NCBI GenBank assembly: GCA_023957315.1
Contig: JAMLHE010000002.1
Location: 263,750-327,749 of the forward strand
Length of the DNA stretch: 64,000 nt
Direction of reading: 5' to 3'
Origin: Candidatus Kapaibacterium sp.
GTDB lineage: Bacteria; Bacteroidota; Ignavibacteria; Kapaibacteriales; UBA2268
Shown here: positions 1 to 44,333 of the stretch, piece after piece
How positions within the stretch are numbered: the stretch's first letter is position 1
Layout of the letters: each line of letters begins with the position of its first letter
Notes under the pieces: generated by a model
Databases searched by the model: none
What the model was told of the DNA's origin: nothing
What the model saw: the letters and a program-made list of their open reading frames with translations, nothing else
Position numbers and translations under genes: made by a program

Positions 1-257
1 CTTTGATTCTCAACGCATCGAAATTGACATTTGTCATAGTTGTAAATAATGCTTCTATAACATATTTATCATATTTTTCGGTATTGATATTATTTTGGTT
101 GAGTATGTGTGTGTAAAATGATAAGCCCTGAGTGGCATACTGCAAAATATCTTGCAACTTGGAAGTCAAATCATCTTTGCCGCACACGCCCATATTGTCC
201 ATGCATCTAAATCGTACATTTTGTTCACATTGATAGCAAAACATGTTTATTCCTTAA

Positions 258-590
258 TTAATTTGACCTTTTCATCAACAACAATGCCTTGGATTTTTCC
301 AAAGTCTTCAACGAATGCGGAGCCTTCGACGGGATAATAAGCAAATCGCCCGTTTTGAGATGATTAACATCACCTGAAACCGTGAAATCAACTTTCCCTT
401 CGATTACATAGAAAAATGCTTCGTATGGTGCTGAGTGTTCGCTGATGTATTGGTCTGCATCAAATGCGAATAGAGTAACTTTTAAATTGTCAAAATGCTT
501 GATAATTTTGCTCACGATTGAGCCTTCGTTGTAATCCACCATTTCTGCGAATGGGAATACTAATGCTTTTTGTTCTGAATTGTTTTCCAT
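258..590 (-). CDS. cupin domain protein
   Basis: 110-aa ORF; small beta-barrel cupin-like sequence (GKVDF..GD....P..PH motif region). Confidence 0.55.
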   Translation of the reverse strand: MENNSEQKALVFPFAEMVDYNEGSIVSKIIKHFDNLKVTLFAFDADQYISEHSAPYEAFFYVIEGKVDFTVSGDVNHLKTGDLLIIPSKAPHSLKTLEKSKALLLMKRSN

Positions 591-4250: not shown

Positions 4251-5456
4251 ATGAAAAAATTTACTTTATTATTTTTATTGATTATTTTTCCTTATATCAT
4301 GAGTGCTCAAGATTGGGGAATCAGATTTAACGGATTTGTCAAAACTGATGCGATGTTTGACACGCGCCAGAATGTAACTGCCCGCGAAGGACATTTTCTC
4401 CTTTTTCCAATGGATGTAGATGAAGTTGAAGGCGGCGATGTCAATGAGACAATGAATTTCAACATGTTGTCCATCCAATCACGTATTACAGGCAAAATCA
4501 CTGCACCTGACTTCCTTGGAGCAAAAACTACAGGTATGATTGAAGGTGCATTTTTTGGGCATACTAATTCAGATATTAACGGTTTTAGATTGCGCCATGC
4601 AACTTTGAATTTGGATTGGGGTACATCTGAACTGTTGATTGGGCAATATTGGACGCCACTTTTTATTGATGAAGCCTTTGCCAAATCTATTTCGTTCAAT
4701 ACCGGAACACCGTTTCAGCCATTTGCTCGCAATCCTCAAATCCGCTACACATTCAAAGCCGATAAATTCCACGTAAACGTAGCTGCTTACTCGGAACGCG
4801 ATTTTGCATCAACTGGTCCTGACGGCGAAACGTCAACTTATTTGCGTAATGCGGTTCTCCCTGTTCTGAATTTTGGCTTGAAATACAATACCGGGAATAT
4901 GCTTTTTGCAGCAAATGCAAATTACAAATCCATCCGCCCACGATTGTTAACCGAAAAGAATCATATTGACGAAAACAAAGTTAATGCAATGACTTTCAAT
5001 GGTGCGATTAAGTATTACGAAGAGGATTTCTTCGTAACATTGCAGGGTTTATACGGTCAAAACACTTCGGCATTAACGATGCTTGGCGGCTATGCTGTAA
5101 CTGCGATTGACGAGAGCAACGGCATGTGGGAATACACTCCTTTGAACACTTTTTCCGGTTTTATTGATATGGAATACGGTAAAGTTTGGAAAATCGGCTT
5201 TTTGGGAGGCTATACAATGAATCTCGGTGCTGACAAAGATATTGTCGGCAATACCTATGGTCGCGGTGCAAATATTGATAATGTCCTCCGCATTTCACCA
5301 AGGCTTTCATATCGCACCGGTATGACACAATTCTCCACTGAATTTGAAGTTACTCAAGCTGCTTACGGAACAAGAGCTACTGTAAAAGGGGTTAACGAAA
5401 ACACTCACAATGTAATGAACATTCGCGTACTTTTAGCGGCAATATTATTCTTCTAA
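4251..5456 (+). CDS. outer-membrane beta-barrel protein (porin-like), signal peptide
   Basis: Signal peptide MKKFTLLFLLIIFPYIMSAQ; alternating amphipathic beta-strand character; C-terminal aromatic residue; downstream of nrfHA. Confidence 0.55.
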   Translation: MKKFTLLFLLIIFPYIMSAQDWGIRFNGFVKTDAMFDTRQNVTAREGHFLLFPMDVDEVEGGDVNETMNFNMLSIQSRITGKITAPDFLGAKTTGMIEGAFFGHTNSDINGFRLRHATLNLDWGTSELLIGQYWTPLFIDEAFAKSISFNTGTPFQPFARNPQIRYTFKADKFHVNVAAYSERDFASTGPDGETSTYLRNAVLPVLNFGLKYNTGNMLFAANANYKSIRPRLLTEKNHIDENKVNAMTFNGAIKYYEEDFFVTLQGLYGQNTSALTMLGGYAVTAIDESNGMWEYTPLNTFSGFIDMEYGKVWKIGFLGGYTMNLGADKDIVGNTYGRGANIDNVLRISPRLSYRTGMTQFSTEFEVTQAAYGTRATVKGVNENTHNVMNIRVLLAAILFF

Positions 5457-19362: not shown

Positions 19363-20591
19363 AAATATAAGAGATTATTTGTTACTAAAAAATTGTTGTT
19401 CAAATTCTAGCGGAGATAAATAATTCAAACTGGAATGCATCCTATGTCTGTTATAGAACACTTCAATATACTCGAATATCATCATCTCAGCTTCACTCCT
19501 TGTTTTAAATCGTGTTTGGTAAACTAATTCCATTTTTAATGTATGGAAAAATGTTTCTGTTATTGCATTGTCATAACAATTGCCTTTTCTACTCATACTT
19601 TGCGATATATGATTATTTTCAAGCAGATTGCGTACCTCGTTGCTTGCGTATTGCACACCTCTATCTGAGTGAAAAATCAATCCTTGCTTGGGCTTCCTTT
19701 CCGTGATTGACTTTTCTATCGCAGAATGTACAAACGCTTTGCTTAATCTTGTGTCAACTCGCCAGCTGATTATCTGTCTTGTAAATATGTCAATTACAAC
19801 GACTAGATAAAGCCAGCCTTCTCGTGTCCAGATATATGTTATATCCGATGCCCATACTTTATTTGGGCTTATTGTTGTAAAATTCTGTTTTAATTGATTC
19901 TCAGCCACCGGAAGACTATGATTTGAATTGGTAGTTGCTTTAAATTTTCGCTTTACGACTGATTTTAAAGATTGCTCTCGCATCAGTCTTGCAACCTTGT
20001 TCTTACCTATCATGATGCCTTTACGACGCAATGCCTGTGTTATTCTGGGCGACCCGTAAACTTGGCGGCTCTTTTCAAATATCTCCTTTATTTCTTTATT
20101 AATTAATTTGTCTGCATTCTTTCGATTGCTTGTTTTACCTTGCTTGTATTTATAGTACCCGCTCGTTGATACTCCTATTGCCCGGCATATTCTCAATACT
20201 GCATATTCTGAGCAGTGCTTTTCCACAAAGGAGTATTTATCTTCTATTCTTTTGAAAATATGCCGAGTGCTTTTTTTAATATGTCTCGCTCCTCTTTTAA
20301 AACCCGATTCTCTCGCTTAAGCCTTGTAAGCTCTGAATCTATAGGGCTTTGGTGTCCTTTACCGGGGAATGCACCTTCAGCATCTTTCAAATACCGTTGC
20401 TTCCAGAGATGCAAGGTATTTTCGTTTATACCAAGTTCTCTTGATAATTCCGATATTCGCTTTTGTTTGCTTAATATCAGTTTTACAGTATTTATTTTAA
20501 ATTCTTTGTCGTATGTTCTTTTTACTTTTTCCATTTTTGACCTCCGTTTTTCTCAAATCTAACTAGTTTTCATCTCTTTTCCTAATGTCCA
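19354..20591 (-). mobile_element. IS3-family insertion sequence (orfA 20244..20534, orfB 19375..20226, A7G slippery site)
   Basis: OrfA HTH transposase (IS3/IS911-like) and OrfB rve/DDE integrase core on the minus strand; AAAAAAAG slippery motif near orfA 3' end (plus-strand ctttttttaa ~20264-20273); imperfect ~21-bp terminal IRs starting TG (tgtacacaaatataagagatt at ~19356 vs revcomp tggacattaggaaaagagatg at 20571-20591, ~14/21 identical). Confidence 0.65.
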
Positions 20592-22297: not shown

Positions 22298-22881
22298 ATA
22301 AAATCCCGTAAAAATATGTTTGAATCCAACGTTTCTTTCAAATATAATGAATATTCTGAATTTAGACAGTTTCATGAACTCAAAATGCACTATATTTCAA
22401 AAAACAATCAGCTATCTATACACTATGACACATGAACAGCAAAAAAATCTCAGGGTGAGAAAAATATAAAAATCCCCCTGCTCGCAAGCTCGCTTTCCCC
22501 CTTTCAAAGGGGGATTAAGGGGGATTTGTATTTGGTTTTTGTCAACTTTTTTTAGGACTAAACAAAAAAAATCTAAATATTTTGTTCCTTTTTTGGGTTT
22601 GAAGTGTCATCATATATATAAAAAGTGTTTTTTTCTGTAAATTTGACAATTTCGATTGTCTATACATTTAGGGAGAATCTTTTCTCCGGAAAGTTTTTTC
22701 CGTCCCGTCTTTAACAAAACCGGAACATCTTAACCTCGAAGAGGTTACATGTTTATAGAAATGATGATTGATGTTCGGTTCGATGCGACCTCGTAGAGGT
22801 CGAATTTAAATAATTAACGTTTTGCTATAAACATATGACTCCTTCGGAGTCAAGAGGGATTCAAAGGAGCAGCTTTTTCAT

Positions 22882-22955
22882 CACCCACGGTTAAAACCGT
22901 GGGCTATGTTTGTCTTTCTCCCTCTCCTTCGGAGAATGTCGGGGTGAGGTTTCTT
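22882..22955. repeat. composite hairpin-module repeat (X: cccacggttaaaaccgtggg-ctatgtttgtc; Y: ctctccTTCGgaga..ggggtgaggtttctt), copy A
   Basis: Near-identical inverted copies of both modules at 40861..40939; Y also inside CDS at 36680..36727. Confidence 0.75.
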
Positions 22956-34512: not shown

Positions 34513-36159
34513 ATGAAGACTATCCTTGTGGCTGTTTTAGCATTATTCATGTTCGCTGCCAATCTCCATTCAACAGTATTAAAAGGTGAAATCACCGGTC
34601 ATGACGGGAAGGCGATTTCAATGTCCCATGTTTTTCGTTCTTGGAACTACTATCAATTTGATGAAATTGTGCAGGCAGACGAAAATGGAAAATTTGAAAT
34701 TCCTCTTACGGCGCAAGGTCCGATTGAGTTTACTTTTTGCGGATTGAATCATTTGCCTCACATTGTAAGATTTGAAGTGCTTGATTCCACAAAGCCTATC
34801 GAAATCAATGTGCAATTGCAGTATTACGTTTACGAGAAAGATGTCACAGAACTAAGCATCATCGGCGGTTTCAATGACTATGATTTTGAAAAAGCAGTAG
34901 CAATGACAAATATTGGCGATGGTAAATTTACTTACAAATTGGAAAATTTCAGCTCCGATACGCTCAAATATCAAGTTTTGGGAATGGTGAACAGACCCGA
35001 AGCACGCAGCATCAACGGGACTCAAGCCGATTTTTATACGCTCGACGGGGGTGGAGATTATTATTCCGTGCTTGTTTCGCCAAGCAGAAATTTTGAAATT
35101 ACTTTTGAAACATCGAAATTAAAATACATAGAGAGCGTAGCAAAAGTCACATTTGTTGACGAAATATATAGCAAACAATATGCTTTGTCATCAAAGCTGA
35201 ATGAGCTTGAACAATCCTCTCGAATGCACTTTTCCAAAGCTTTGCAAACCCATAACAGGGATAAAGTGTCCGAGCCATTTCTTGCTTTATCACAGGAATA
35301 TTTAGATTTAATCGCTGCCCAAGACATGATTGAATCCAAAGATAAAGTAACAATAGCATATATGAGATATTTGAGCCATCTCAGCTATTACACGGAACTA
35401 CCAAAAGTAAATCTGACACCTGTGCTTGATATGATTAAGAGAACGCCGGCAGAATCAGACAAAGTTAAGGAATTCGGAAACGGATTCGATTTGTTGGCGA
35501 TAGCAAAACATCAAGGGATACCTCCCCACGAATATGAATATATTTTGGATGTAATTGAGAAAAATCCTGATAAAGCATTTGCTGCTGAATTGCTTAACTA
35601 TTTGATTCATAATATTATCCGCACCGATGAAGAAACCGGATTGAAACTATACAATCGGATAATCGCAGAGTTCCCGAATGAAGAAGCTACAAAACGCGCT
35701 CGCCAAGAATATGACCCGAATCGTGCAATGCAAGTTGGCAGGAAAATCCCCGATTTTAAATTCAAATCCTTAGACAATCCCGACCAATTCATAACACCCG
35801 AAACACTGAAAGGCAAGTATGTTTTGATAGATTTGTGGGCTACTTGGTGCGGACCCTGTATAATGGAAATGGAAAATTTGCACGAAACATACCAAGCCTA
35901 TAAAGATAAGGGATTTGAAATATTGAGCATATCAGTTGACCCAATGGCGTCGCGAGTTGTCGGATTCAGAAACGGGAAATGGAAAATGCCCTGGTTGAAT
36001 GTATGGTCAGAGGGTCAATTCCAAAGCGAAGCCGCCAAAATATTCGAAGTGACCGGAATCCCCCGCTTTGTGCTAATCAACCCCGACAGCGAAATCATAG
36101 CCGTTGACACAATTCGCGGCGCAGGACTAAAAGCAAAATTAGCCGAATTATTGAATTGA
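34513..36159 (+). CDS. TlpA/redoxin-family thiol:disulfide oxidoreductase with large N-terminal extension
   Basis: Signal peptide; C-terminal thioredoxin fold with WATWCGPC. Confidence 0.75.
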   Translation: MKTILVAVLALFMFAANLHSTVLKGEITGHDGKAISMSHVFRSWNYYQFDEIVQADENGKFEIPLTAQGPIEFTFCGLNHLPHIVRFEVLDSTKPIEINVQLQYYVYEKDVTELSIIGGFNDYDFEKAVAMTNIGDGKFTYKLENFSSDTLKYQVLGMVNRPEARSINGTQADFYTLDGGGDYYSVLVSPSRNFEITFETSKLKYIESVAKVTFVDEIYSKQYALSSKLNELEQSSRMHFSKALQTHNRDKVSEPFLALSQEYLDLIAAQDMIESKDKVTIAYMRYLSHLSYYTELPKVNLTPVLDMIKRTPAESDKVKEFGNGFDLLAIAKHQGIPPHEYEYILDVIEKNPDKAFAAELLNYLIHNIIRTDEETGLKLYNRIIAEFPNEEATKRARQEYDPNRAMQVGRKIPDFKFKSLDNPDQFITPETLKGKYVLIDLWATWCGPCIMEMENLHETYQAYKDKGFEILSISVDPMASRVVGFRNGKWKMPWLNVWSEGQFQSEAAKIFEVTGIPRFVLINPDSEIIAVDTIRGAGLKAKLAELLN

Positions 36160-36590: not shown

Positions 36591-38207
36591 TCACAACTTC
36601 ACAAACATCCGCGTCCGGCTGCCGATACGGACGTAATACACACCACGAGAGAGATGCGAAATATCAACTCTCAAATTCCCGCTCCCTGAGCCTGTCGAAG
36701 GGTGAGCGGGCGGGGTGAGGTTTCTTACGCATTCACCAAGCGTATTGAAAATGTGAATTTCAGCACCTTCATCAACCCTACGGTTAACCGTAGGGTTGAT
36801 GGTGTGGGAACTGATTTCAATATATTCCGTTGCGGGATTGGGGTGGATTATCGTGCTGATTTGCACTGCTTCGTTGATGCTTGTGGGTTTCGTGCAGATG
36901 CTGCTTGTCCTGTGAATGTTGTTCTGGAACATTGTCCAGTCGGGACCTTGCCCGGTTCCTGCTGAAATTGCGTATGCTCTGCCGTAATTACTGTGCCAAT
37001 CGGGATATTCGACAAAGCCACCAATTATGAAAACATCGAGTATTCCGTCGCCGTCAAAATCCGCTACTACCGGGGCATGGTCTATCGAAAACTCTTTGCC
37101 GATATGGTCAGCAAGGTCAAGAGTCCAAATGACTGAAGCGTCAATGCCCCTAAGTGCGATTACTTGTCCGCCGGTAGTGCCGAAAATGACATCCGGCAAT
37201 CCGTCATTGTCTATATCTGATAGCGCTGCTCCACGAAATGATTGTTCGATATTGGGAATATCATATTCCCAAAGTACTGAGCCGTCGCCTTTTAGGGCAT
37301 AGTAGCGGTAAAAGCTCGAAAAGACTAATTCGCAATTTCCATCGCCGTCCAAATCGCCCACAACAACAGGCGAACCGATATATGAAATCGCCTTGAAACG
37401 CCATTTCAATGTGCCGTCTGCGGAATTGAGTGCAAAGAGATTGCCGGCATAATCGCCTATTACTAAATCATCTATTCCATCGCTGTCGAGGTCAACAACT
37501 GCGGTTCCGTGATAAACAACATCTTCCAAGTCGAATGTCCAGATTAATTGCTGGTCGTAGCCACGATAAGCATAAACTTTGCTTTGGTTGTCAGTTGTAT
37601 CAAAATTCCACGAGGCTACTACGAAATCTAATTTTCCGTCGCCGTCAAGGTCAACAATTGTCGGAGCAGTCTGAATCCATGAGTTAGTGTCCACTTTTAA
37701 GTCCCACTTTTTGATGCCATCGCTTGCGTTCATACATATTACATATCCACCGAATTGTCCGTGCAAAATTTCCAATTTTCCATCGCCATCAATATCTGCT
37801 ATTGTAGGCGGTGAATCGCTTCCACGTGTGAGAGTTTGCCATTTTACTGCTCCTGTTGCTCCGTCGAAACAATATGTGTAGGGATTGCACGAACTTGCGA
37901 CGATAACGTCGAGCAAGCCATCGCCGTCCACGTCGTAAATGAGTGGCGCCGTGTCGTTGCATCCCTCCTGCCAACCGGATGTATTGTACTTCCAGAGCAA
38001 TGTGCCATCGTCTAAATTGAGGGCATAAACCATGCTATCGTTGCGATAACAGCCGAAAACCACTTCGTATTTTCCGTCATGGTCAATGTCTGCGAGTGCG
38101 GACTGACCGTACGAATTATCGTTCAGGTCGTACCACCACTTAATTTCAGGTACTTGTGCAACACATTGGATTGCAACCAATGTAAAAATAAGAATCAAAG
38201 TTTTCAT
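36591..38207 (-). CDS. FG-GAP/VCBS beta-propeller repeat protein with T9SS C-terminal sorting domain
   Basis: Eight D-x-D-x-D-G-x-x-D repeats (DIDHDGKYEVVFG, VDGDGLLDVIV, DIDGDGKLEIL, DLDGDGKLDFVV ...); C-terminal IFNTLGECV...ISHLSRGVYYVRIGSRTRMFVKL. Confidence 0.75.
   Translation of the reverse strand: MKTLILIFTLVAIQCVAQVPEIKWWYDLNDNSYGQSALADIDHDGKYEVVFGCYRNDSMVYALNLDDGTLLWKYNTSGWQEGCNDTAPLIYDVDGDGLLDVIVASSCNPYTYCFDGATGAVKWQTLTRGSDSPPTIADIDGDGKLEILHGQFGGYVICMNASDGIKKWDLKVDTNSWIQTAPTIVDLDGDGKLDFVVASWNFDTTDNQSKVYAYRGYDQQLIWTFDLEDVVYHGTAVVDLDSDGIDDLVIGDYAGNLFALNSADGTLKWRFKAISYIGSPVVVGDLDGDGNCELVFSSFYRYYALKGDGSVLWEYDIPNIEQSFRGAALSDIDNDGLPDVIFGTTGGQVIALRGIDASVIWTLDLADHIGKEFSIDHAPVVADFDGDGILDVFIIGGFVEYPDWHSNYGRAYAISAGTGQGPDWTMFQNNIHRTSSICTKPTSINEAVQISTIIHPNPATEYIEISSHTINPTVNRRVDEGAEIHIFNTLGECVRNLTPPAHPSTGSGSGNLRVDISHLSRGVYYVRIGSRTRMFVKL
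36770..36801. repeat. perfect 32-bp palindrome inside the T9SS-CTD coding sequence (encodes INPTVNRRVD)
   Basis: catcaaccctacggttaaccgtagggttgatg; centre GTTAAC. Confidence 0.85.
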
Positions 38208-40695: not shown

Positions 40696-40860
40696 ACGCT
40701 AAAAATAAATTAAAAAAGTTCCCAAATGATAAACGGACAACAGTTTTTTTTAGTTAGTTTTTCTTATTCCCCCTCTTTCAAGAGGGTGTTACGAAATATT
40801 TTTAGGGCGTGCTAATTCTATCTAGCCGCAAAGGACACAAAGAGTTGAAATTGGTAAGAA

Positions 40861-40939
40861 GACAAACATAGCCCACGAATTTTGATGGTGGGTTAAGAAG
40901 GAAACCTCACCCCAACCTCTCCGAAGGAGAGGGAGAAAG
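40861..40939. repeat. composite hairpin-module repeat, copy B (rcX-rcY)
   Basis: gacaaacatagcccac..ggtggg + ggaaacctcaccccaacctctccgaaggagagggagaaag = reverse complements of modules X and Y of copy A. Confidence 0.75.
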
Positions 40940-41063
40940 AAAAATTGAAAAAAATAAAAAATTTGAAATTTTATTTGGAAATGACAAAAGTTTTTTATTT
41001 TGGGATATTGAATTTTACATTTTTGTAAATTGTTGTTAAATAAGGAGTAATTTATAATGAGTA

Positions 41064-42749
41064 ATGTATTCGCCCCCCCCCCTCAAAGCCTCATGGCTAT
41101 TGACAATTGTATTATCCTTACTATACTTTACTAATGTAACTGTAATGATTGCACAGAACGAAAAAGAGCTGTTTCCTGAGCAATTGCTTAGTTCATGTTG
41201 CGAAGAAATCGATATTGACTACTATGTGACGGAAGATTGTTGTATTCAAATTGATATTGACAATCCAAGTTGTGAAGACGCGAAAATTTCAATTTTGTCA
41301 AAAGCACCAAATTCACCGTTGTGGAATTTAAGATATGTAGAATCCGCACCTGCTACAAGTGTCAGTTATAAACTCTGCCCGTCTAATTATTCTACCTCAA
41401 TGAGGTTTAGAATTATAATTCAACATGCAAATGGAGCACCGCATTGCGACACAAGCTTAATGGTTGAAGGAGTAAACCAATTTACTTATGATGTTGACAT
41501 CAGTCACTGTTGCAACTGTGAAGGTAGTAGTTCATGGATAACCTCATACAAAAGTTCAGATACACTTTGTCCGGACTCATGTTCTTTTGGAGTGTATTTA
41601 AATATACCGGATTCTATTACTTGCTTTAAATACTATGGTACATGGATTGCAGAGTCAGGCAATGCGGCAAAAGATATTGATTCAGTTTCTAATATTATTA
41701 AGTGTGTTGGACCAGGAGAAGAATCAAGCATACGAATTAGATTGCTAACAAGTATGGAAGAATATCATTCTGCTTCAGGTTGTTATTTGAGTGCACAAAT
41801 CTCTTGTGATACTACGACATACTTTTGGATGCCTGACATTGATTTAACTTGTTGGGATGATTGTGAAGAAGCGGAAGTAAGAAAAGATACTTTATCTGAT
41901 TTTCATGTGCCTGGATGCTTTAATTGCCCAGTCACTGTTTCTTATGTAACAAGAAAATGCAATGACAAGCAAGAGTTACAAATTACAGGCTTCTGGACTC
42001 ACAATACTTGGAATTGTAGAAATTGCCCGGACGAAATGCTTTACGATGCTGCTTTGAAAGAAATAATTTATAAAAATAAAATGGAATTTGAACCTACAGA
42101 AGTCAATGATTGTGATACGACTTGGCGTGTTGGAATAAGCAGTTGCTTTGGTACATACATATATACAAATTGGATAATGAAATGGGAAGAAGCAGGACCA
42201 TCCGGCCCCGGTGGTTGGGTTTCAGTACTCGATACAATAGTTGTCAGAGTTGTATGCGATACTATTGATTGTTGCTTTAAGCAACTAACTGTTTGTAGAT
42301 ATGATGACCATATTACGATTGCAGATGGAGCATCAAGCGACACAAATATCATCTGTTTACCACCTCTTCAATTCCCAATGCTTGAACCACCAGTATTTTG
42401 CGGACCTTCGTGTGATTGGCTTGATAGTTTGGAAGGTTACTACTACCCCCATCTGAGTAGTAAAGAATCTTATGGAGCGAAATTCTTCCTATACGAAGAA
42501 ATAAAGGTTAATTCTTATATACAGAATGGAAAATTTAATCTTGAAATTGAATCACCAAACTCCTCAGAAATAAAATTTACTGTATATGATTATTTAGGTA
42601 ATATTTTTATCCAAAGTCCTATAAGAATTCAAGCTGGCACAACAAGATATAACATTGATTTAACACCATTAAATACAGGAACATATATATATACGATAGT
42701 CTTTGATGAGAATCTGATAAAAACAGACAAGTTTATTTATATTAAATAA
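41064..42749 (+). CDS. novel cysteine-rich (~40 Cys) secreted protein with T9SS-like C-terminal domain; poly-C tract at codons 4-7
   Basis: Signal-peptide-like N-terminus; CC/CxxC-rich body (SSCCEEIDIDYYVTEDCCIQIDIDNPSCED, HCCNCEG...); C-terminus KFTVYDYLGNIF...TGTYIYTIVFDENLIKTDKFIYIK resembles T9SS CTD; AT-rich. Confidence 0.6.
   Translation: MYSPPPLKASWLLTIVLSLLYFTNVTVMIAQNEKELFPEQLLSSCCEEIDIDYYVTEDCCIQIDIDNPSCEDAKISILSKAPNSPLWNLRYVESAPATSVSYKLCPSNYSTSMRFRIIIQHANGAPHCDTSLMVEGVNQFTYDVDISHCCNCEGSSSWITSYKSSDTLCPDSCSFGVYLNIPDSITCFKYYGTWIAESGNAAKDIDSVSNIIKCVGPGEESSIRIRLLTSMEEYHSASGCYLSAQISCDTTTYFWMPDIDLTCWDDCEEAEVRKDTLSDFHVPGCFNCPVTVSYVTRKCNDKQELQITGFWTHNTWNCRNCPDEMLYDAALKEIIYKNKMEFEPTEVNDCDTTWRVGISSCFGTYIYTNWIMKWEEAGPSGPGGWVSVLDTIVVRVVCDTIDCCFKQLTVCRYDDHITIADGASSDTNIICLPPLQFPMLEPPVFCGPSCDWLDSLEGYYYPHLSSKESYGAKFFLYEEIKVNSYIQNGKFNLEIESPNSSEIKFTVYDYLGNIFIQSPIRIQAGTTRYNIDLTPLNTGTYIYTIVFDENLIKTDKFIYIK
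41073..41082 (+). repeat. C10 homopolymeric tract (candidate slipped-strand phase-variation switch)
   Basis: cgCCCCCCCCCCtc directly after two out-of-frame ATGs (41057 with AAGGAG SD at 41042-41047; 41064). Confidence 0.8.
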
Positions 42750-42810
42750 AAACAATGTCATACTCCTACTGAAAATGTAGGAGTATGACTCTTTTTCTTT
42801 AGGAGTTAAT

Positions 42811-44238
42811 ATGATTTCGTATATTTTAAATATAATATGGCTTGTCCTAATATTGAATTCAATTTTGTATTCTCAAACCGAATGGGAGCAAGTGCATCCT
42901 TCTACTTATGGTACAGCTGCAAAATTTAATACTGTAAGATGTTTAGACAGTTTAAATTGTGTGTGTTTGGTATGGAATGGTACAGTATGTTGCGAAGGTG
43001 TTCTAAAATCCACAGATGGTGGCAAAACATGGAGTGAATTATATTACGAAAAAATTACATATGATGAAGAAGGTAATTTGATTTGGCCACAACCCAGATA
43101 CATGAATTCAGTTTCATATAAAACAGTAGAAAATATCCTAATTTCACGTAGCCATGGGATGATTTTCAGGAGTAAAAATGGCGGTGAATCCTTTGATACC
43201 GTTCGAGTTGTAGTACCAGTCGATGGAAAATATCCAAGCAGTTCAGAATTAAAAAATATCCACATGTTCAGTAATTCAAAAGGGGCTGTTGTATCAACAC
43301 CAAATATTTATATTACTAATGATTATTGGGACTCCTTTGAAATGATTGAAATATCACATCCCGATGTACCTGATGATTATATAATTAAAGCATTAGATAT
43401 TCATTTTTTTGATAAAGATAAATTTACAATTTATTTCTTTGCCAATAAAGAAATTTCACCTAATAATTTCCATTTTTTATTCAAAGGATTCCTGACAACT
43501 ACGGATAATGGCAAAACATGGCATATGCAAGATATTTTAAATGATTTTCAGGCAAGAAATGTTTACATTAATTCATTGTTTTCTCTAAATCCTATGATTG
43601 GATGGGCTGTCGGTTATGTTGTTTATGATACAGACAATGGGGGTAGATTAAGACACGGACTTGTTTATAAAACTTATAACGGAGGTTATACATGGGATTT
43701 AATTCATGTAGATGAAACTGAACCAAAATTTGGTTTATGGGACATTGCTTTTTATGATGAACTAAACGGAATAACAGTAGGTAAATACGGGAAGATTTTA
43801 CGTACAACAGACGGAGGTTATAAATGGTTCTCCGATGTTCAATTGAGTGCCGAACAAGAATCTTCTCGACTCACTCAGGAAATTACTTTTGCCGGGCAAA
43901 ATCCAATTGTATGTGCTTGGCAAGATGGTATTGTTCGTGGCACATACACACCATCTTCTGTAAAAGAAAGCGCAGAAGCAGGGAGCGGGCTGTCCGTCTT
44001 TCCCAATCCGGCAAGCGAATATATAGAAATAACCATAGCTATCAACCCTACGGTTAACCGTGGAGTTGATGAAATTGCTGACATCAAAATCTTCAATACT
44101 CTGGGTGAATGTGTTGAAGAAATCCCCCTTAATCCCCCTTTGCCAAAGAGGGAAACAAGAATTGATGTTTCGCATCTTCCTCGTGGTGTGTATTATGTTC
44201 GTATTGGCAGCCGGACGCAGATGTTTGTGAAGATGTGA
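42811..44238 (+). CDS. BNR/Asp-box repeat (Ycf48/sortilin-like beta-propeller) protein with T9SS C-terminal sorting domain
   Basis: Asp-box repeats STDGGKTW, SKNGGESF, TTDNGKTW, KTYNGGYTW, RTTDGGYKW; C-terminal VFPNPASEYIEI...IFNTLGECV...VSHLPRGVYYVRIGSRTQMFVKM. Confidence 0.7.
   Translation: MISYILNIIWLVLILNSILYSQTEWEQVHPSTYGTAAKFNTVRCLDSLNCVCLVWNGTVCCEGVLKSTDGGKTWSELYYEKITYDEEGNLIWPQPRYMNSVSYKTVENILISRSHGMIFRSKNGGESFDTVRVVVPVDGKYPSSSELKNIHMFSNSKGAVVSTPNIYITNDYWDSFEMIEISHPDVPDDYIIKALDIHFFDKDKFTIYFFANKEISPNNFHFLFKGFLTTTDNGKTWHMQDILNDFQARNVYINSLFSLNPMIGWAVGYVVYDTDNGGRLRHGLVYKTYNGGYTWDLIHVDETEPKFGLWDIAFYDELNGITVGKYGKILRTTDGGYKWFSDVQLSAEQESSRLTQEITFAGQNPIVCAWQDGIVRGTYTPSSVKESAEAGSGLSVFPNPASEYIEITIAINPTVNRGVDEIADIKIFNTLGECVEEIPLNPPLPKRETRIDVSHLPRGVYYVRIGSRTQMFVKM
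44041..44070. repeat. imperfect copy of the 30-bp palindrome inside paralogous CTD coding sequence (encodes INPTVNRGVD)
   Basis: atcaaccctacggttaaccgtggagttgat. Confidence 0.8.
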
Positions 44239-44295
44239 TTATGTTTTCGGACAGAACGCTGTTCTGTCCCTACAAAATATGATAATCCTGTTCAA

Positions 44296-44333
44296 GACAA
44301 AAAAAAATCCCCGCTTCCGAAGGAGCAGGGATT
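44296..44333 (-). terminator. rho-independent terminator of sdhCAB operon (minus strand)
   Basis: Minus-strand ccctgctcc-ttcg-gaagcgggg hairpin followed by U9. Confidence 0.65.

Follow-up and report, generated by a model that had tools for sequence, protein, structure and literature searches.

The question raised by this locus is whether two adjacent genes, located at positions 41064 to 44238 of a 64,000-nucleotide stretch of Candidatus Kapaibacterium sp. (contig JAMLHE010000002.1; the whole stretch is hereafter called the window), constitute an undescribed module of secreted proteins, and whether they were recently imported. In a preliminary description the interval was regarded as an AT-rich island encoding a cysteine-rich protein and a BNR-propeller protein, both with sorting domains of the type IX secretion system (T9SS). 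The positions given there for the two open reading frames (ORFs), here designated A and B and both on the forward strand, were exact (Table 1). The comparison of this DNA and its predicted products with related loci indicates that the interval is a conserved and undescribed two-protein T9SS module, for which we infer a biochemical function, a contact between A and B, and a switching of A. The Kapabacteria lineage is now placed within the Bacteroidota in the NCBI taxonomy.

Of the 13 independent loci that were informative, 12 have an A-type gene followed directly by a gene for a BNR propeller with a sorting domain, even where identity falls to about 25%, in agreement with the two-protein module that had been proposed. 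Direct adjacency was present in the window and in loci L001/L018, L002, L003, L004, L005, L008, L019, L020 and L021; in L003 two propeller paralogues follow A, and L008 is a second pair in the same metagenome-assembled genome. The arrangement extends to minimal systems, in which proteins of about 200 amino acids (aa) consisting of domain C of A alone (P0137, on three contigs, and P0147) lack a sorting domain and are directly followed by a Ycf48-like propeller of 500-730 aa that carries one. The two proteins diverge in step with each other, with identities of 52-53, 50 and 27-28% for A and of 54-57, 50 and 24-30% for B. The synteny comparison suggested in the preliminary description had a twofold outcome: the pair is co-inherited, and its chromosomal context differs among lineages, the flanks being glyoxalase and sdh in the window, UvrD and ABC-F in L018/L001, YbeY/DUF494 in L003 and a transposase in L019. 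It was also observed that L001/L007 and L018 are labelled as Desulfobulbaceae and L005/L006 as Hyphomicrobiales, yet they carry genes with T9SS sorting domains, one of them on a contig of 334 kb; T9SS cargo is implausible in those groups, so these contigs are probably mis-binned or mislabelled Kapabacteria/Bacteroidota.

Protein A begins with a Lys-containing n-region followed by the hydrophobic core WLLTIVLSLLYF, a leader that is kept in homologues and was judged by inspection to be a Sec signal peptide. The public annotation of A (P0001) starts at Met28 and gives a protein of 534 aa without signal peptide; since the hydrophobic N-terminal segment is conserved in homologues, the long ORF is favoured over this start. 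The N-terminus of B begins with MISYILNIIWLVLILNSILYSQ and was likewise judged by inspection to be a Sec signal. At the other end, the sorting domain of B matched Por_Secre_tail (PF18962) with 42.4 bits and TIGR04183 with 30.7 bits, and that of A, marginal by sequence, reached 25.1 bits with TIGR04183 (cutoff 23) and 25.5 bits with PF18962 (threshold 27). The sorting domains attributed to both proteins were thus clear for B, and for A they stood above the TIGR04183 cutoff but just below the Pfam threshold. At the level of sequence, A and B both have the sorting-domain match and the N-terminal Sec signal that characterize T9SS type-A cargo.

The number of cysteines in A is 32, not about 40 as first counted; it is even, and all of them lie at residues 45-450, with none in the signal peptide or in the sorting domain. 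They form four CC pairs, three CxxC and one CxC motifs, so that a protein dominated by CC and CxxC was an overstatement; the motif CCEEIDIDYYVTEDCCIQIDIDN is present as described, at residues 45-67. About 29 of the 32 cysteines are invariant in an alignment of eight homologues with identities down to 27%, and most cysteine positions are more than 90% conserved among 155 representatives of the family. Within these 155 sequences cysteines tend to be missing in pairs, namely C350-C411 (phi 1.0), C45-C70, C46-C128, C285-C321 and C60-C105, which is the behaviour of disulfide partners. The sequence of A does not contain any CxxCH motif, and a cytochrome was ruled out on this basis.

A word-indexed search with A retrieved only eight proteins. 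The exhaustive profile search, run without leader and sorting domain, yielded 334 cluster representatives at E <= 1e-3 (63 at E <= 1e-30), nearly all of them metagenomic and every cluster named 'hypothetical protein'; when genome and metagenome contigs were scanned with this profile, in a way that depends on exact peptide patterns, four and two loci only were obtained, and a word-indexed search with the domain C alignment contributed little. The profile is composed of the modules N, M and C, a modular build that was absent from the preliminary description. Domain C was also found alone in secreted proteins of 190-330 aa with 14-16 cysteines, some of them without a sorting domain, and M+C is placed just before the sorting domain in long proteins with an S8 peptidase or a DUF7948+SBBP propeller. 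Judging from these profile matches, A is a three-domain member of an undescribed cysteine-rich family.

When Pfam and NCBIfam models were applied to A and to 63 sequences of domain C, nothing was obtained beyond the sorting domain and matches at chance level, in keeping with the earlier statement that A has no catalytic domain. No sequence of the PDB was found below E = 0.7 with the A profile, and PADLOC gave no match for A or B. The full-length AlphaFold2 model of A, based on a 35-sequence alignment, had a predicted local distance difference test score (pLDDT) of 82 and showed a leader helix, beta-sandwiches for both N and M, an alpha/beta fold for domain C and, at residues 481-559, a sandwich of seven strands; domain C modelled alone reached a pLDDT of 89.5 and a predicted template-modelling score of 0.86. 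When the full-length model was compared with the PDB by Foldseek, only generic strings of immunoglobulin- or fibronectin type III-like domains were obtained, with template-modelling (TM) scores of about 0.15-0.24, which says only that A is a chain of beta-sandwiches. For domain C the best PDB E-value was 0.05 with TM <= 0.18, and no match at E < 0.04 was found in PDB or BFVD. With no family model, no solved relative and no fold match for domain C, the protein has remained undescribed, as had been supposed. No supporting evidence was found for the suggestion that it is toxin-like.

Protein B matched PSII_BNR/Ycf48 (PF14870) with 48.4 bits (gathering threshold 27, partial match) and Sortilin-Vps10 (PF15902), marginally, with 34.9 bits (threshold 33). 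Together with that of the sorting domain, all three Pfam matches are above threshold and uphold its identification as a Ycf48/sortilin-like Asp-box propeller with a T9SS export signal. The propeller has about 360 aa, a seven-blade size, and its closest solved relatives are the Ycf48 proteins 8am5, 2xbg and 5oj3 (E = 4e-16 to 1e-10); structures of GH74 and GH33 gave weak Asp-box-level matches (E = 8e-7 to 1e-2), much weaker than Ycf48. The Ycf48 equivalog PRK13684 aligned only with residues 295-365 of B, at 40.3 bits against a cutoff of 326; B lies so far below this cutoff that it shares the type of scaffold and is not an orthologue. The family is named 'YCF48-related' or 'photosystem II stability/assembly factor-like' in the sources, and Ycf48-like T9SS propellers are very abundant in these genomes, with 228 matches at E <= 1e-10. 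PorZ was considered as the identity of the double-propeller partners and rejected, NCBIfam giving only sub-threshold Ycf48-like and F510_1955-like matches.

Both genes are maintained by selection. In L021, the closest relative (92% amino-acid identity for A and 81% for B), the ratio of nonsynonymous to synonymous substitution rates (dN/dS) was 0.19 for A and 0.31 for B, values that point to purifying selection and to two functional genes. Nucleotide identity with L021, compared over positions 41185-44285 of the window, alternates between blocks of 95-100% and blocks of 68-85%. Domains N and M, the A sorting domain, the hairpin between the genes and the start of B are 95-100% identical, the first half of domain C 80-85% and the rest of B 68-93%. 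Domain C and the propeller are the segments that have diverged most, a point in favour of their partnership. The mosaic suggests allelic recombination, concentrated in these two segments.

The coding sequence of the sorting domain of B contains a near-palindrome (Table 1), of which the FG-GAP gene, on the opposite strand, has a perfect copy within its own sorting domain (36771-36800). This palindrome, ATCAACCCTACGGTTAACCGTAGGGTTGAT, has 30 nucleotides (nt) centred on GTTAAC, encodes INPTVNRRVD in either reading direction and is kept in the B orthologues of L001 (2984-3007), L002 (4008-4031) and L018 (7896-7919). Possibly it arose as a palindromic insertion in frame, is a site at which sorting-domain cassettes recombine or undergo gene conversion, or forms a structure in the mRNA. 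The sorting-domain DNA of B (43960-44238), of the otherwise unrelated FG-GAP gene (36591-36870, reverse strand), of L002 (3930-4211) and of L018 (7815-8087) has about 77% mean column identity with long invariant blocks. This is much more than would be expected from the remaining parts of these proteins, and it suggests that a cassette particular to the lineage is exchanged or evolves in concert. A carries an ordinary sorting domain of another type, unlike the cassette of B and the FG-GAP protein.

Between A and B, a hairpin absent from the preliminary description is located (-23 kcal/mol, z = -5.4). That of L021 is identical, and hairpins of divergent sequence occupy the same place in L001-L005, L008, L018, L019 and L020 (z from -2.3 to -7.5), so that one is present in every locus with a full-length A and none in the minimal domain C loci. 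The stem-loop with U tract that defines a terminator or attenuator was found in the window at 42757-42789, and the U tract is weak or absent in L004 and L005. The hairpin is a candidate element for attenuating or terminating transcription or for stabilising the mRNA.

The 230-300 nt upstream of A, approximately, are a further conserved part of the locus. Most positions are invariant among the window, L002 and L018, with a mean column identity of 79% for the whole alignment, in contrast with the encoded proteins, which are about 52% identical; beyond this leader the genes differ (glyoxalase in the window, UvrD in L018). The repeat previously noted on the left of the pair as copy B is real, as an inverted copy at 22877-22953 is 83-91% identical to it. 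In L002 and L018 its core, CACCCCAACCTCTCCGAAGGAGAGGGAG, has likewise been kept ahead of A, and since it lies within the conserved region, the so-called composite repeat belongs to the putative leader or promoter accompanying the pair. The hairpin repeat may be a small element of the repetitive extragenic palindromic (REP) type or a shared regulatory site. A match of this repeat to the Rfam small RNA 'drum' (25.8 bits, threshold 43) was absent in the second copy and in the orthologous leaders and was attributed to chance. The second copy (GAAACCTCACCCC..CTCCGAAGGAGAGGGAGAAAG) is situated after the terminator of a DUF4252 gene in an operon of an extracytoplasmic function (ECF) sigma factor (24616-23029), and also upstream of a CarboxypepD_reg/Laminin_G_3 gene (22390-21017).

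The 5' end of A contains a poly-C tract and two offset ATG codons, neither of which was included in the preliminary description. The tract, C10 at 41073-41082, is the sole run of at least eight C or G in the 64 kb, in which about 0.05 runs of C9 or longer would be expected by chance. ATG1 is located 9 nt after the Shine-Dalgarno sequence AAGGAG; in the window ATG2 is in frame with ORF A, and ATG1 leads to a stop after 25 codons. The tract is C9 in L002, with ATG1 in frame; C11 in L018, by a T-to-C substitution that leaves the total length unchanged, with ATG2 in frame; and C13 in L020, with ATG1 in frame. The more distant A homologues have no poly-C tract. Three of the five CCC proline codons of A fall within the tract, in a gene whose G+C content at third codon positions (GC3) is 0.26; a C run kept at one site of a low-GC3 gene, in proteins about 52% identical, argues for selection on the homopolymer itself. 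The features by which contingency loci are recognised, namely a homopolymer of at least eight nt that sets the frame in the 5' coding region and a tract length that varies among relatives, were both found, and the tract with its offset ATGs is accordingly proposed as a candidate phase-variation switch of A.

Two further observations concern such tracts. The L001 contig (JAGXRP010000014.1) ends exactly at the poly-C tract of its A orthologue, as would be expected of an assembly break at a length-heterogeneous or hard-to-sequence homopolymer. In L019, positions 4399-4416, a C9 run directly followed by A8 precedes, by about 520 nt, a distant homologue of A whose coding region lacks a tract; this may be a variable tract acting on promoter spacing, or a coincidence.

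Taken together, the interval is proposed to be a self-contained two-gene T9SS surface module, with a complex of A and B, control of A by the poly-C tract and a role for the hairpin; this reading as a whole leans towards the probable side. Protein A would be exported by Sec and then by T9SS, so that its three disulfide-stabilised domains are displayed on the cell surface, and B, a Ycf48-like BNR propeller of the seven-blade type, would follow the same route; it is the export signals that point to surface display. No core T9SS gene is present within the 64-kb window; several other sorting-domain proteins on the same contig imply that the host has this system. On the surface, A and B may act together as a complex in which domain C docks on the propeller. 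That they act as one unit is suggested by the depth of the adjacency, by the minimal pairs in which only the propeller has a sorting signal, by the fusions of M+C with a propeller in a single chain and by the parallel divergence. The complex would bind a ligand or a surface instead of catalysing a reaction, since A shows no obvious catalytic motif and the type of protein closest to B is a scaffold without enzymatic activity; this binding or adhesion role is the weakest step of the argument.

Slipped-strand mispairing at the poly-C tract would control the production of A. In one length class the Shine-Dalgarno-proximal ATG1 would be in frame and expression full; in the next, the poorly placed ATG2 would be in frame and expression reduced, which would be the state of the window; and in the third, neither ATG would be in frame and A would be off. 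The conserved hairpin might uncouple A from B or set the A:B ratio.

Several points weigh against this proposal and lend themselves to two alternatives. The A-like P0015 (L013/L014) has no propeller directly downstream, the BNR gene being about 6 kb away; the abundance of Ycf48-like T9SS propellers means that some adjacency is expected by chance; adjacency could reflect co-regulation alone; and the hairpin may do no more than terminate transcription of A, with B transcribed from a separate promoter. A and B could then be independent T9SS cargo, merely co-transcribed or co-regulated and forming no complex, for example an adhesin (A) and a lectin or glycosidase (B), as would also fit the signal peptide and sorting domain that each protein has of its own and the strong hairpin with U tract between the genes. 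Such independence is rather unlikely given that the adjacency holds to about 25% identity across at least five flanking contexts and in minimal systems whose domain C protein lacks a sorting domain, that M+C is fused in a single chain to another type of propeller, and that A and B diverge in parallel. With regard to the switch, the tract lengths were compared among diverged orthologues in four different assemblies and not within one population, and homopolymers are easily misread in sequencing; ATG2 coincides with conserved Ser-Asn-Val codons in the frame of ATG1 and may have been kept only incidentally. Differences that are fixed or due to sequencing error, with A constitutive and the tract merely encoding Pro-Pro-Pro in the n-region of the signal peptide, would account for the single consensus length of each assembly, for the proline that poly-C encodes in every frame and for the intact ORF that each of the four assemblies has from one ATG or the other. 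This explanation is possible, though on the unlikely side: C9-C13 tracts at the same site of four diverged orthologues with GC3 of about 0.25 argue for selection on the homopolymer, the lengths fall in two frame classes, and the L001 contig breaks exactly at the tract.

The other two alternatives concern the origin of the pair and the chemistry of A. The total G+C content of A and B is 0.355 each, about -1.5 standard deviations (sd) from the mean of the 49 ORFs of the window (0.400, sd 0.030); one gene of the window has a lower value and several other 1-kb windows are equally AT-rich. Their GC3 (0.263 for A and 0.256 for B; mean 0.390, sd 0.048) are the two lowest of the 49. The AT-richness reported earlier is therefore sustained by GC3, total G+C content alone being unremarkable. 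A recently acquired genomic island with the composition of a foreign donor would explain these values, and the varying chromosomal context, the conserved upstream region that the pair possesses and the small repeat at its left edge would agree with it. However, the GC3 of the orthologous pairs of L001, L002 and L003 is also 0.22-0.30, mostly under that of adjacent genes; the skew is thus characteristic of the pair itself and gives no evidence of recent transfer. The edges of the pair show no integrase, transposase, tRNA or direct-repeat boundary, and thus the genome-specific atypical composition accompanied by mobility genes or an insertion boundary that defines a genomic island was not found in this interval; both genes are under purifying selection, and the left-hand repeat is part of the conserved leader in orthologues. 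Recent import is consequently very unlikely, and the term island, in that sense, is not supported. It is still more improbable, to an extreme degree, that A uses its cysteines as metal ligands or redox centres, in a metallothionein-like or electron-transfer surface protein, instead of forming structural disulfides. The dense cysteines with CC and CxxC motifs and a weak sub-threshold Thioredoxin_3 match around C318-x-x-C321 (E = 0.039) would be in line with such a role, but CxxCH and conserved His or Met partners are lacking, cysteines are lost in pairs, C285 and the CxxC cysteines C318/C321 are the least conserved of the family (49-61%), and the domains model as well-packed beta-rich folds.

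Table 1. Features of the A/B locus, given as window positions unless residues or profile positions are indicated
Feature	Position	Strand	Remarks
FG-GAP protein	36591-38207	-	T9SS sorting domain
Intergenic repeat (copy B)	40859-40944	+	hairpin CCTCTCC-GAA-GGAGAGG
Conserved 5' region	40905-41056	+	candidate promoter/leader; includes AAGGAG at 41043-41048
Candidate phase-variation switch	41057-41082	+	ATG1 at 41057; ATG2 at 41064 (+1 frame relative to ATG1); C10 tract at 41073-41082
ORF A	41064-42749	+	561 aa
A signal peptide	residues about 1-31	+	by inspection
A domain N	residues about 44-130; 41193-41453	+	Cys-rich beta-sandwich; profile matches
A domain M	residues about 131-255; 41454-41828	+	Cys-rich beta-sandwich; profile matches
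A domain C	residues about 256-470; 41829-42473	+	Cys-rich alpha/beta domain; profile matches
A T9SS type-A sorting domain	residues 481-561; 42504-42746	+	
A-B intercistronic hairpin	42757-42789	+	13-bp perfect stem, 7-nt loop, then UCUUUUUCUUU
ORF B	42811-44238	+	475 aa; signal peptide, Ycf48-like BNR/Asp-box beta-propeller, T9SS type-A sorting domain
B sorting domain	residues 396-475; 43996-44235	+	
Near-palindrome in B sorting-domain coding sequence	44041-44071	+	30-31 nt; encodes INPTVNRGVD
Hairpin after B stop	44249-44269		9 bp; no U tract
sdhB terminator hairpin	44306-44333		A run on one side, T's on the other
Module N of A family	profile positions 1-110		carries CC...CC...NPxC hairpin
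Module M of A family	profile positions about 112-222		tandem repeats possible
Module C of A family	profile positions about 228-435		found alone too

The neighbours of the pair are ordinary chromosomal genes: the T9SS FG-GAP protein (reverse strand), a CitMHS transporter (forward) and a glyoxalase (reverse), with sdhB, sdhA and sdhC, all on the reverse strand, downstream. The sdh terminator placed on the right of the pair in the preliminary description was recovered in the terminator scan. Farther neighbours are UvrA, a TonB-dependent receptor, MacB, a SurA-like isomerase and an M1 peptidase. Adjoining the FG-GAP gene, about 5 kb upstream of A, positions 34513-36159 encode a protein of 548 aa whose C-terminal part is a thioredoxin/redoxin (TlpA-like) domain. 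It may be a thiol-disulfide oxidoreductase of the periplasm and could then matter for the folding of cysteine-rich cargo. An integrase/transposase of the insertion-sequence type (rve, HTH_21) is located at 19375-20226 within another AT-rich stretch and does not adjoin the pair. At the P0015 locus, an ECF sigma factor gene is directly upstream and DoxX downstream; this neighbourhood hints at sigma-factor control of some family members.

T9SS cargo proteins number tens of thousands and, to our knowledge, most of their passenger domains have no assigned function. Against this background the A family is compact (334 representatives), has three unmodelled cysteine-rich domains, one of them without detectable fold relative, and is tied to a specific class of partner, the 'YCF48-related' propellers. 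Such propellers abound in Bacteroidota and Ignavibacteria that do not photosynthesise, where we know of no role for them; if domain C docks on the propeller, many orphan propellers would gain a testable function. The minimal pairs also raise the question whether T9SS can export a partner without its own sorting signal. Simple-sequence phase variation has been studied mainly in host-adapted pathogens, and a poly-C tract with two starts would extend it to free-living uncultured bacteria, in which it could reflect the pressure of phages or predators on surface proteins. In the literature, nothing relevant was found on homopolymer phase variation with T9SS cargo or on a cysteine-rich T9SS protein with a propeller.

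A bolder and quite doubtful version of the proposal would make domain C a new disulfide-locked fold docking on the Ycf48-like propeller, as a bacterial two-chain counterpart of the propeller and 10CC modules of sortilin; the minimal form without sorting domain would be exported by T9SS riding on its partner, and the complex of Kapabacteria would be switched by poly-C, read from the two offset ATGs, between strong, weak and off states. If true, no earlier case of a simple-sequence contingency switch would exist for T9SS cargo of environmental Bacteroidota.

Comparison with known systems places A and B among T9SS type-A cargo, with which they share the N-terminal Sec signal and the C-terminal beta-sandwich sorting domain of about 80 aa, and the genome holds several other such cargo, for example the FG-GAP protein. 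They differ from it in the passenger of A, with three cysteine-rich domains without family model and a domain C without fold match, and in the propeller pairing, the intercistronic hairpin and the poly-C tract, which are not general to such cargo. B resembles Ycf48/HCF136 in its above-threshold match to PF14870 and in its best solved relatives, and it has a T9SS sorting domain where Ycf48 has a lipobox or thylakoid targeting. In fimbrial operons of the papA-papH type, intercistronic hairpins set subunit ratios; the hairpin described here is likewise a strong stem-loop that separates the leading structural gene, presumably the one with the more abundant product, from the gene of the partner, and it is conserved in structure, not in sequence, and known from DNA alone.

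The lic1 locus of H. influenzae is a contingency locus with start codons in two frames. Similarly, the tract described here is a homopolymer in the 5' coding region of a gene for an exported surface protein, its length shifts the frame, and start codons in two frames would yield strong, weak and off states. The difference is that lengths were compared here between assemblies only and that the host belongs to environmental uncultured Bacteroidota, not to host-associated pathogens. A documented precedent is found in Gardnerella, where the gene nanH3 has a poly-C tract whose length varies within cell populations (bioRxiv 10.1101/2020.09.16.300947).

The Vps10p domain of sortilin consists of a ten-bladed propeller and two disulfide-stabilised 10CC modules that pack on it (PMC5700061). 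Its combination of an Asp-box propeller with disulfide-rich modules recurs in the A/B pair, and in some members of the A family M+C is fused to a propeller in one chain. On the other hand, the propeller of B, of seven-blade size, is not ten-bladed, and the modules of A are far larger (about 110 and 210 aa) and reside on a separate polypeptide. PF15902 covers only profile positions 2-111 of 446 in B, and A gave no match to the Sortilin_C/10CC model nor, at E <= 0.1, to any Pfam model besides the sorting domain. Sortilin may thus be regarded as an analogue in design, and not as a family to which the pair belongs: in both cases disulfide-rich modules would be combined with an Asp-box propeller, on one chain in sortilin and on two in the pair described here.

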